Origin: a virus
Direction: 5' to 3' (one strand)
UHGV virus genome: UHGV-1555466
Length of the DNA: 43,198 bases
Each line of letters opens with the position of its first letter. Position 1 is the first letter of the stretch. This document shows positions 34,027 through 35,979 of this stretch, in pieces. The translations under genes were made by a program, and so were the position numbers. The notes under the pieces were generated by a model. It worked only from the letters and a program-made list of their open reading frames with translations. It was not told where the DNA came from and searched no databases.

Positions 34027-35091
34027 ATGTCACAGAACTGGATGAGACATTTCGAGCTGCAGCTTGTGGACGGGAACGGTCAGGGAATTGAGCTAAGTGA
34101 TTTCAAAGTCACCTTTACGATCGACTGGTTCAACATCAGCAGCGCGTCCCGGGTAGGGACTATCAAAATTTATAACCTCTCGGCAGATACTGTGAACCGA
34201 ATTACCGGGCAGGAGTTTTCGAAAGTGCGTCTGATTGCCGGTTACGACGGTATCGCGCCGGAGGTGTCAGCAAGCGACGTAGGGACCGTGCGGGAAGTTG
34301 ACGCGGCGGACGTGGGCCAGAGAGATGGCCGCAACTACGGACTGATTTTCAGCGGTGAAATTCGCTACTCGGTCACAGGAAAAGACAGTCCGGTTGATAC
34401 CTACGTCCTGATTCAGGCAGCAGATACTGATCTGGCTTTTGCTACCAGTATAACCTCACAGACGCTGGCTGCCGGTTACACGGTCGCTGATGTGAACCGT
34501 GCGCTGATGAAAGACTTCGAAGCCAAAGGCGCGACCGAAGGCCTGACGCCTGAAATGCCTGCTACTGTATTCCCCCGGGGGCGGGTACTCTTTGGCATGA
34601 CGCGGCATCTAATGGATAACGTAGCCGGACAATGTGGCGCAACATGGCAATTCGTGGACGGTCAGCGCCAGATGGTGGTGAATAACGAATATGTTCACGA
34701 AGCGATTGTGCTCAACAGCGCTACCGGGCTTATTGGAATGCCGCAGCAGACTATCGGTAACGGCGTAAACGTCCGCGCGCTTATTAATCCGAACATCCGG
34801 GTTAACGGGCTCATTCAGCTGGATCAGGCTTCCGTCTATCGTACCGCGTTGTCGAACAACGATATTGCGATGGCTGGTGGTCAGATCACCGACCAGAACA
34901 CGGACGGAAATATCACGCTCAGCGGCACCACATCGCAGCCTGCCAGCATCGCAACGGATGGCGTTTATATTGTGCGCGGGATTATGTACACTGGCGACAC
35001 AAGGGGCCAGGCGTGGTACATGGATATGATGTGTGAAGCGCGTGGCGCGGCGGATCTTGTTTCCTCATCAGCGAGGGAAAGAGGGCTTTAA
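34027..35091 (+). CDS. putative baseplate hub protein (Mu gp44-like position)
   Basis: 354-aa ORF between tape measure and baseplate spike. Confidence 0.5.
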   Translation: MSQNWMRHFELQLVDGNGQGIELSDFKVTFTIDWFNISSASRVGTIKIYNLSADTVNRITGQEFSKVRLIAGYDGIAPEVSASDVGTVREVDAADVGQRDGRNYGLIFSGEIRYSVTGKDSPVDTYVLIQAADTDLAFATSITSQTLAAGYTVADVNRALMKDFEAKGATEGLTPEMPATVFPRGRVLFGMTRHLMDNVAGQCGATWQFVDGQRQMVVNNEYVHEAIVLNSATGLIGMPQQTIGNGVNVRALINPNIRVNGLIQLDQASVYRTALSNNDIAMAGGQITDQNTDGNITLSGTTSQPASIATDGVYIVRGIMYTGDTRGQAWYMDMMCEARGAADLVSSSARERGL

Positions 35092-35426
35092 TGAAACGGT
35101 TATGTTTGGCGTTAGTTATGATGGTTACTGCTCCGGCGATGGCTGCAATTCAGTGCGGCAACTACACGATGACCGGTGACGGAATGACTGTTATTAACGG
35201 TGAAACTGTCACATCACAGAAGATAAAATTTCTGGGAAAAGATGGTGACTATTCAAACATGAAAATGGACATGGGCCTGATGCCTTCCCGTGATGGTAAC
35301 AATTACGGCTTTGAGTTTGTGAAACGTAACGGAAAAGCTTTCCTGAACGTCCAGCTGCTGCAGAACAGCATGGACGCGCCGAAAATCATTGGATCTTTCC
35401 CGTGTAAAAAAGTGAGCAGCAAGTGA
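35091..35426 (+). CDS. secreted hypothetical protein (moron within baseplate module)
   Basis: 111 aa; N-terminal signal peptide MKRLCLALVMMVTAPAMA. Confidence 0.55.
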   Translation: MKRLCLALVMMVTAPAMAAIQCGNYTMTGDGMTVINGETVTSQKIKFLGKDGDYSNMKMDMGLMPSRDGNNYGFEFVKRNGKAFLNVQLLQNSMDAPKIIGSFPCKKVSSK

Positions 35427-35935
35427 CAGTTGATGATGATCCTTTGAATTCATTTCAAGACCCTGACTTTCAGGAACTTCTCGGCGGAATTGATATTACT
35501 CTTGTTATAAGGTTTTTTAATTATTTTTCGCGTTTCGAATATGCGTTAAAAAGAATTAATTTCAAAAAAACTGATCGTAGAAATTATCTAATCGGTGCTG
35601 ACTGGAGCCGCTACGCTACTGATGATACGCGGCCTTTATATCCTACTGGAAATAGAAATGTCGATAGGGCAGTTGAGTATCTATGTCAGCAACCTGTGAA
35701 GCAGCAGAGGCATGATTTTTCGTGGGAGGATAAACCTCCAATCGAACCTCATTCTCTTGCTGAAGCATTAAAGCAGATCCCGTATATAAGAAATAATCTC
35801 TTTCACGGCGGGAAGTATTTACGTCCCGCCCCCGTTCGTGATGAAAAGTTATTGAAATACTCTATTTATTTGATGCAGTTGTGTTTGATAACTGATAATC
35901 AGCTTTCTGAATACTTTAATACTATCCACCGATAG
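35423..35935 (+). CDS. hypothetical protein (AT-rich moron with own terminator)
   Basis: 170 aa, AT-rich; followed by a strong hairpin terminator. Confidence 0.55.
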   Translation: MTVDDDPLNSFQDPDFQELLGGIDITLVIRFFNYFSRFEYALKRINFKKTDRRNYLIGADWSRYATDDTRPLYPTGNRNVDRAVEYLCQQPVKQQRHDFSWEDKPPIEPHSLAEALKQIPYIRNNLFHGGKYLRPAPVRDEKLLKYSIYLMQLCLITDNQLSEYFNTIHR

Positions 35936-35951
35936 TCATTCTTCATGAGAT

Positions 35952-35979
35952 AAAACCTGCCACCCGGCGGGTTTTTTGC
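35952..35979 (+). terminator. intrinsic terminator
   Basis: aaaacctgcc/ggcgggtttt stem around loop accc, then UUUUUU. Confidence 0.6.

Follow-up and report, generated by a model that had tools for sequence, protein, structure and literature searches.

A variable cargo slot between the baseplate hub and spike genes of SEN34-like prophages, with a HEPN-like protein and a putatively exported protein as defence and exclusion candidates

Gene Content of the Hub-to-Spike Interval

The window analysed here, i.e., the whole 43,198-nt stretch of virus genome UHGV-1555466, carries an Escherichia coli prophage related to Salmonella phage SEN34 (Brunovirus). Its positions 33700-37200 match four induced Escherichia phages (vB_EcoM-689R2 and others) at 99.5-100% identity. 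Two small genes are situated between the baseplate hub gene and the spike gene of this prophage: sec111, encoding a protein of 111 amino acids (aa), and HEPN170, encoding a 170-aa protein with HEPN-like features. A first-pass annotation of the sequence had described them as two accessory genes, followed by their own terminator, inserted into the baseplate module between a hub-like and a spike-like gene. Both open reading frames (ORFs) were recovered and are conserved, and the interval is composed of the following features.

34027-35091, plus strand: gene for the baseplate hub, which is conserved and flanks the slot on the left (match to phrog_196 'baseplate hub', E 2e-88, and to PF22759, E 5e-5; located upstream of the gene for the 111-aa protein in related loci)
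35091-35426, plus strand: sec111, ATG start, gene for a putatively exported 111-aa protein (phrog_3443, unknown function), typical of the lineage, left edge of the slot
35091-35144, plus strand: Sec-type signal peptide MKRLCLALVMMVTAPAMA, with cleavage predicted at the AMA-AIQC boundary
35411-35951, plus strand: cassette exchanged relative to a near-identical E. coli prophage (strain BH100N, locus L003), from the breakpoint alignment
35423-35935, plus strand: HEPN170, GTG start, gene for a stand-alone HEPN-like 170-aa protein (phrog_19013), swappable cargo of the window
35525-35539, plus strand: FSRFE (residues 35-39), a motif without variation among 25 aligned homologues, located in the first long helix
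35789-35806, plus strand: RNNLFH (R123-x4-H128), the HEPN Rx4-6H signature, followed by GGK, invariant in the same 25 homologues, down to 26% identity
35952-35984, plus strand: Rho-independent terminator-like hairpin with T-tract, conserved right border of the slot (terminator scan, folding)
35985-36748, plus strand: spike gene (gpV-like) with GGAG ribosome-binding site, conserved right flank (PF18352, E 5e-44, and GpV apex motif)
35996-36748: the spike ORF itself, with the spike N-terminal domain PF18352

The start codon of sec111 uses the last base of the hub stop codon (TAATG), and the GTG start of HEPN170 overlaps the stop codon of sec111. Over 35100-35900, the guanine-plus-cytosine (GC) content drops from approximately 0.55 to 0.34-0.44, and the first-pass annotation had noticed the 170-aa protein as AT-rich. 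Judged by the large size of their families and the strongly conserved columns of the alignments, both ORFs are taken as real, conserved genes.

Exchange of Cargo between Conserved Flanks

The hub-to-spike interval is a cargo hotspot of SEN34-like (Brunovirus-type) prophages, with conserved flanks and variable, unrelated cargo. Related loci from 26 species were retrieved by searching with sec111 itself, and a spike gene was identifiable in 25 of them. In almost all loci of the 26 species, sec111 is located directly after the hub gene. Where a spike gene could be recognised (25 loci), it is separated from sec111 by about 400 to about 4100 bp, and the contents of the interval are unrelated between loci. 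The corresponding slot of the window measures 573 bp and is devoid of a second conserved ORF. The GC content of the interval amounts to 0.36-0.45 and is below that of the flanks in every related locus.

The cargo observed in the related loci comprises Phd together with Doc, a YafO toxin preceded by a partner, an Mrr-type nuclease with a membrane anchor, DUF2335 membrane proteins, a tRNA_anti-like OB protein that is secreted, several small secreted proteins, and pairs that end in small proteins with HEPN-like motifs, the latter judged by eye only. A protein of about 245-265 aa recurs as alternative cargo (L003:4429-5584, L004:5483-6642, and L002:4408-5208), and is followed in L003 and L004 by a protein of 131-142 aa with motifs that resemble HEPN motifs by eye (AISRAYY...; RNEADY / RVNSDY). 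Neither the 245-265-aa protein nor its 131-142-aa partner was matched by Pfam or PADLOC models in these three loci.

Among 5426 complete E. coli genomes, the hub-to-spike region is present in 352, with the HEPN170 cassette in only 25 of these. The remaining E. coli copies are annotated with YafO, DUF4282, DUF2335, or STY1065/STY2022 proteins. Thus presence and absence in related tail modules, proposed in the first-pass annotation as a check, revealed cargo that differs both among the 25 related loci and among E. coli genomes.

A direct view of an exchange is given by the near-identical prophage of strain BH100N. It shows two mismatches to the window over 34027-35410 and complete divergence from 35411 onwards, i.e., from 16 nt before the sec111 stop codon, and similarity returns at the hairpin. 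The exchanged stretch has a GC content of 0.39 compared to 0.51 in the flanks. In Providencia phage PSTCR3, the hub of which is 38% identical (L038:3501-5200), the hub stop codon overlaps the spike start by four bases, and neither a gene nor a hairpin is located in between. This overlap probably represents the uninterrupted ancestral arrangement, in keeping with the earlier view that the two genes interrupt an otherwise adjacent hub-spike pair.

Some records of the comparison are of aberrant assignment or structure. In case of L007, a contig labelled Chryseobacterium sp. 18061, the hub protein is 93% identical to the E. coli hub and a HEPN170 homologue occupies the same slot. Both L007 and L037 (Elizabethkingia phage EKP1) contain enterobacterial-type tail genes in records assigned to Bacteroidota hosts, and these host labels look doubtful, suggestive of contamination or mislabelling. 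In Photorhabdus khanii (L019:3252-4535), transposase-like fragments and unrelated large ORFs are found upstream of sec111 in place of plug and hub; the prophage has undergone decay here but still contains sec111, the cargo, and the spike gene. The Salmonella enterica contig AAESVN010000103 (L030:2823-4046) may be a deleted prophage remnant, in which a sec111-like gene, HEPN170, and the spike gene are kept and tape measure, Dit, plug, and hub are missing or left unannotated by the gene calls.

A Conserved Hairpin at the Right Border and Its Relation to Late Transcription

The hairpin identified by the terminator scan at 35952-35975 is followed by the tail TTGCTTTTT. It folds with -16.5 kcal/mol (z = -3.0), a stability reached by none of 200 shuffled sequences. 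Irrespective of the cargo, 24 of the 25 related loci in which a spike gene could be recognised possess a GC-rich hairpin with a T-run, at a distance of 13-19 nt from the spike ATG downstream. The stems vary by lineage yet stay paired (CCCGCC/GGCGGG, CCTGC/GCAGG, CCCAGC/GCTGGG, CCCGGC/GCCGGG, and GGCCGCT/AGTGGCC). In the alignment 91% of the cells are paired, and four of eight pairs show compensatory changes on both sides. This degree of pairing was matched by none of 500 shuffles and by no slid register. A terminator-like element does follow the gene pair, as postulated in the first-pass annotation, but it belongs to the conserved backbone, immediately ahead of the spike ribosome-binding site, and not to the cassette. 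There is no space for a promoter between the T-run and this site.

Within the coding sequence of sec111, a second hairpin, weak and followed by a T-rich tail, is found at 35288-35308; L003 and L004 have conserved it along with the gene. This hairpin was rejected as a terminator and is probably non-functional, since it contains only three GC pairs and is one of three terminator-like matches in the region scanned, compared to 3.5 expected from shuffles. A scan of 34800-36200 against Rfam gave no match.

Further genes of the window that bear on the transcription and the context of the slot are the following.

17483-17905, plus strand: lambda-Q-type antiterminator gene (PF06530 Phage_antitermQ, E 8e-41)
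31129-33135: tape measure
33135-33722: Dit-like protein
33722-34024: plug
36748-37101: sheath-initiator-like gpW
37101-38300: baseplate J

The tail-tip and baseplate genes are thus arranged in the order tape measure, Dit-like, plug, hub, sec111, HEPN170, spike, gpW, and baseplate J. A holin gene and the terminase genes are located downstream of the Q gene. In the lytic cycle, Q-modified RNA polymerase would read through the hairpin to the spike and wedge genes, and any local, Q-independent transcription of the slot would halt there.

In addition to the lambda-Q antiterminator, an S24-peptidase CI-like repressor (13570-14244, minus strand) and a class-3 holin (18420-18779) are encoded in the window. 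Their combination with a contractile-tail baseplate points to lambdoid regulation of a myovirus-type phage as for SEN34, which was described as lambdoid in regulation and myovirus in morphology (PMC5261728). Virion proteomics is absent from that paper.

HEPN170 as a Candidate Stand-Alone HEPN Protein

In PHROGs, HEPN170 matches only phrog_19013 (unknown function, E 1e-17). A direct sequence search retrieved 27 clusters, and a profile search 6931 proteins of about 160-180 aa, none of them with a Pfam domain. The alignment of 25 homologues, down to 26% identity, contains two invariant blocks, FSRFE..K and RNNLFHG.K, the second of which includes R123 and H128. An Rx4-6H motif is the signature of HEPN RNases.

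The AlphaFold2 model of HEPN170 is mainly helical and of high confidence (pLDDT, predicted local distance difference test, 91; pTM, predicted template modelling score, 0.85). HEPN toxins and Cas13b are its best fold matches, with 5yep, Cas13h1, and AbiA lower in the list. In a comparison of the HEPN170 profile with PDB sequences, the motif helix was weakly aligned with RNSVAHGG of the CRISPR-associated protein 8y7f (E 0.027). Considering the signature, the suggestive fold resemblance, and the absent match to a curated model, HEPN170 may be regarded as a divergent stand-alone HEPN domain.

In Salmonella and Pantoea prophages as well as in L007, homologues with 49-54% identity take the same position, flanked by a sec111-like gene on the left and the spike gene on the right. 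Homologues with about 30-38% identity are chromosomal. They adjoin HEPN_AbiV, found in two contexts that are unrelated, an nSTAND3 NTPase, TIR together with Mrr-DEAD, PIN, or a pair of XRE and M78-peptidase genes, and these neighbourhoods are defence-island-like. An MNT antitoxin gene was found neither in the slot of the window nor beside the homologues examined. HEPN170 is most likely an abortive-infection or toxin RNase, and its gene is rare, swappable cargo of the defence or toxin type.

On two metagenome contigs with unrelated contexts (L042:2243-4528 and L044:3247-4528), a distant HEPN170 homologue is located downstream of a HEPN_AbiV gene, in one case with a Hypoth_Ymh gene in between and in the other with TIR, RNase_T, and Mrr-DEAD nearby. 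This pairing may be a recurrent multi-HEPN defence arrangement.

sec111, a Near-Constant Resident with a Signal Peptide

The sec111 protein belongs to phrog_3443 (unknown function, E 3e-53). Its family comprises more than 410 clusters at 90% identity across the Enterobacterales, including Klebsiella, Salmonella, Yersinia, Photorhabdus, Serratia, and others. At 50% identity, however, an exhaustive profile search among 1.84 billion proteins gave only 62 representatives, which makes this abundant family a narrow one. The few long multi-domain matches to the profile, which are fn3/Ig-repeat proteins, were rejected as spurious.

Signal-peptide features were checked by rules in 33 aligned relatives. 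All 33 combine a basic start and a hydrophobic core with a small-x-small site, the distance of which to an invariant Cys downstream is exactly three residues, and a lipobox is present in none. The N-terminal 18-25 residues are variable in sequence and conserved in hydrophobicity. Besides many conserved columns, the family possesses an invariant Cys pair, C22 and C105, the latter near the C-terminus. These features bear out the signal peptide proposed in the first-pass annotation and indicate Sec-dependent export to the periplasm, where the two Cys would form a disulphide. The AlphaFold2 model, all-beta with eight strands, reaches moderate confidence (pLDDT 77). Neither PDB nor BFVD contains a meaningful structural neighbour of it, and it shows no similarity to known lysozyme or transglycosylase inhibitor folds. 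The profile and structure searches suggested earlier for both proteins yielded a HEPN-like motif and fold for the 170-aa protein, but no homologue of known function for the 111-aa protein.

Due to the fact that the related loci were fetched via sec111, its constant presence there is circular, and a hub-based search of phage records was used instead. sec111 occurs in 20 of 23 phage records with a hub at least 47% identical to that of the window. Exceptions are two records of Hafnia phage yong1 (hub 77% identical) and phage EKP1, which carry other genes in the interval. Furthermore, sec111 is absent from PSTCR3 and all more distant hub homologues. Since yong1 lacks sec111 despite its 77% identical hub, the protein is dispensable for this baseplate. 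sec111 is a near-constant resident of the lineage directly after the hub and not variable cargo. The notion of an accessory insertion holds for the interval as such and for HEPN170, but not for sec111, which is no occasional insertion.

The identity of sec111 is uncoupled from that of the hub: loci with hubs 96% identical encode sec111 proteins of 53-62% identity. In the slot of Serratia aquatilis CP173186 (L027:5001-9328), the canonical sec111 is joined by five divergent paralogues (36-40% identity to the protein of the window), of which four are complete and one is truncated. All complete paralogues start with a hydrophobic leader (signal peptide) of their own, and the array is interrupted by an insertion sequence (IS)-type transposase gene (7307-8515, minus strand). 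One Yersinia cargo protein is a possible distant paralogue of sec111 (hhalign probability 67%).

For sec111, the most likely role is not that of a virion part but that of a periplasmic factor for superinfection exclusion or entry blocking. The case for this role consists of three observations, namely export, dispensability in a close relative, and the arms-race-like uncoupling of alleles together with tandem paralogues. A role as antitoxin or partner of HEPN170 was rejected, because sec111 is predicted to be exported and is found with every cargo type.

Proposed Function of the Slot and Alternative Explanations

Taken together, we consider it fairly probable that the interval is a recombinational cargo slot in a Q-antiterminated late operon, with HEPN170 as an abortive-infection or toxin candidate and sec111 as an exported, exclusion-type protein. 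The slot would lie inside the late operon of a SEN34-like prophage, which is lambdoid-regulated and myovirus-tailed. Its left border would be given by the end of the hub gene or of sec111 and its right border by the conserved hairpin before the spike ribosome-binding site, and cassettes would be swapped between related prophages by recombination in the conserved flanks. In the window, the cargo would consist of a single gene for a minimal HEPN-domain protein. HEPN170 presumably acts as a dimeric, metal-independent RNase with a composite active site using R123 and H128. It would stay inactive until a competing phage or another stress appears, and then cleave RNA and abort the infection, i.e., act as a single-gene prophage defence of the abortive-infection or toxin type. 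sec111 would accompany the slot in nearly all close relatives as a Sec-exported, disulphide-bonded periplasmic protein.

Several observations weigh against this explanation. Most slot cargo, including both genes of the window, has no match to known defence models, and the Mrr-type nuclease is the sole cargo recognised by PADLOC. Searches of Pfam, NCBIfam, and PADLOC gave no match for either HEPN170 or sec111; HEPN170 matches no curated HEPN sequence model, the scores of its fold matches are low, and no antitoxin, sensor, or inhibitor partner is visible for it. sec111 has no structural relative, and its proposed role is deduced from localisation and evolutionary pattern. Promoter scans at the window and three related loci gave consensus matches not above shuffle expectation. 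Both genes overlap the stop codons upstream of them and are thus maybe made only late in the lytic cycle, which fits the protection of a lysogen less well. The overlaps suggest that both genes are translationally coupled to the late operon, and lysogenic conversion by them is offered as a proposal. Accordingly, of the moron label given in the first-pass annotation, the foreign composition and the cargo site stand, but neither a promoter signal above chance nor independence from the late operon was observed.

It is tempting to speculate further that the interval is a dedicated, terminator-insulated slot, that sec111 founds a new class of periplasmic entry-blocking proteins, which would diversify by allele swapping and tandem duplication, and that with HEPN170 a large unannotated family of HEPN proteins for single-gene abortive infection has its first recognisable member (approximately 6900 profile hits, no Pfam model, members recurrently beside AbiV-type HEPN genes). 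This extended version is tentative and on balance doubtful.

Alternatively, HEPN170 might serve the phage in the lytic cycle as a late RNase for the degradation of host or competitor RNA, for counter-defence, or for the exclusion of co-infecting phages or satellites. The overlap of its start with the sec111 stop and of the sec111 start with the hub stop places both genes in the Q-dependent late transcript, and no independent promoter was detected above chance. However, among the 352 E. coli prophages of this type, HEPN170 is confined to 25, and in its slot it is interchangeable with toxin-antitoxin and nuclease genes, and its distant homologues are chromosomal and occur in defence-island contexts rather than in phage lytic modules. 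We therefore regard a lytic function as rather unlikely.

In case of sec111, a periplasmic modulator of the phage's own envelope enzymes, such as the transglycosylase domain of the tape measure or the lysis proteins, or a host-fitness factor in the sense of lysogenic conversion has to be weighed against an exclusion factor. The tape-measure homologues of the lineage possess an SLT transglycosylase domain, and both the translational coupling of sec111 to the hub and its near-universal presence in the lineage would fit a role in the phage cycle. Yet the sequence of sec111 is uncoupled from those of hub and spike, the gene is missing from yong1, which retains the same tail genes, and tandem divergent paralogues as in Serratia are more typical of arms-race proteins. 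Together with the lack of similarity to known inhibitor folds mentioned above, this makes a modulator not very probable, and exclusion or entry blocking is preferred.

Less probable still is HEPN170 as the toxin of a prophage-stabilising addiction module, neutralised by an unrecognised small RNA, peptide, or host factor. Type II toxin-antitoxin pairs (Phd-Doc; YafO with its upstream partner) do occupy the slot of relatives, and HEPN-MNT toxins are among the closest folds, but the 573-bp slot contains no MNT gene or second conserved ORF, the Rfam scan gave no candidate RNA, and the homologues are solitary genes in several contexts. A structural or assembly role of both genes in the baseplate, with the signal peptide as an ordinary N-terminal helix, is very improbable. 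The two genes do share the orientation of the baseplate operon that surrounds them and are linked by overlaps of stop and start codons, and sec111 accompanies most of the closer hubs, but HEPN170 is absent from most relatives, yong1 with its 77% identical hub lacks sec111, PSTCR3 has nothing between hub and spike, the base composition is foreign, and a variable N-terminus that retains Sec features in every relative checked is combined with two invariant Cys. The first-pass annotation had named virion components conserved in all related baseplate clusters as the observation to look for against its proposal; instead, HEPN170 is rare and sec111 is absent from yong1, EKP1, and PSTCR3.

Hub-to-spike intervals of SEN34-like prophages occur in approximately 6% of complete E. 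coli genomes and across the Enterobacterales. The sharp, conserved borders of the slot make its cargo accessible to a search for new toxin, defence, or exclusion genes. A literature search yielded no account of this hotspot, nor of the two protein families, i.e., of the large HEPN-like family without a curated model and of the narrow, putatively exported family tied to one phage lineage. For annotation, the terminator has to be read as a late-operon backbone feature that would depend on Q read-through, and not as evidence of the cassette as an independent transcription unit.

Comparison with Known Systems

An experimental precedent for the function proposed for HEPN170 is given by Tha, a HEPN protein of Staphylococcus aureus prophages, which responds to the tail proteins of incoming phages by activation and is restrained by a cognate inhibitor (PMC11087260). 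Like HEPN170 it is prophage-encoded, and its HEPN Rx4H domain resembles HEPN-MNT toxins and Csm6. It may serve as a working model of a prophage HEPN RNase that aborts infection by incoming phages. Tha has about 300 aa with an extra N-terminal region and is encoded beside the lysogeny module, with its inhibitor Ith in an antisense operon (PMC11087260). In contrast, HEPN170 is a minimal domain of 170 aa in the late operon without a visible inhibitor, and a sequence relationship between the two was not detected.

HEPN-MNT toxins (PDB 7ae2, 8xdj, and 5yep) and the HEPN domains of Cas13 and Csm6/Csx1 are among the best fold matches of HEPN170. They share the Rx4H signature, in case of the CRISPR-associated protein in the form RNxxxHGG, and the stand-alone toxins are of similar size. 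HEPN170 differs by the lack of an MNT partner, by extra beta-hairpin insertions, and by an N-terminal extension.

Spackle of phage T4 and the lipoproteins Cor and Llp are superinfection-exclusion proteins of the periplasm or envelope. P22 SieA (PMC10883804) and the periplasmic 'gatekeeper' HXS (PMC13128918) are further envelope proteins with this function. Similar to sec111, these proteins are small, phage-encoded, and exported to the envelope; some are encoded among structural genes, and they show signs of an arms race. sec111 is not a lipoprotein and has no sequence or fold similarity to any of them, so that the comparison is one by analogy only.

Lambdoid morons of the HK97/lambda type are extra genes between two late genes, often with their own promoter and terminator. 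The slot resembles them in that its genes are situated between late genes that are adjacent in a relative (PSTCR3), in a GC content lower than that of the flanks, in the intrinsic terminator that follows, and in the Q antiterminator of the host phage. Differences are the promoter matches at chance level, the translational coupling of both genes to the gene upstream, and a terminator that is common to all cargo types as part of the backbone and not brought by the cassette.

In P2-like prophages, the hotspots old/tin and Z/fun have been described, the latter among tail and baseplate genes (Rousset et al., preprint 10.1101/2021.01.21.427644; iLund4u, preprint 10.1101/2024.10.15.618418). Conserved structural-gene flanks and highly variable cargo exchanged among related prophages, including toxin-like and nuclease genes, are common to these hotspots and the slot described here. 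The latter differs in its SEN34/Brunovirus-like lineage and in most of its cargo being without a match to catalogued defence systems. Thus the architecture is already known in kind from lambdoid morons and P2-like hotspots; specific to the present case are the position between hub and spike, a left edge formed by the near-constant, putatively exported protein, and a right edge formed by the conserved terminator.

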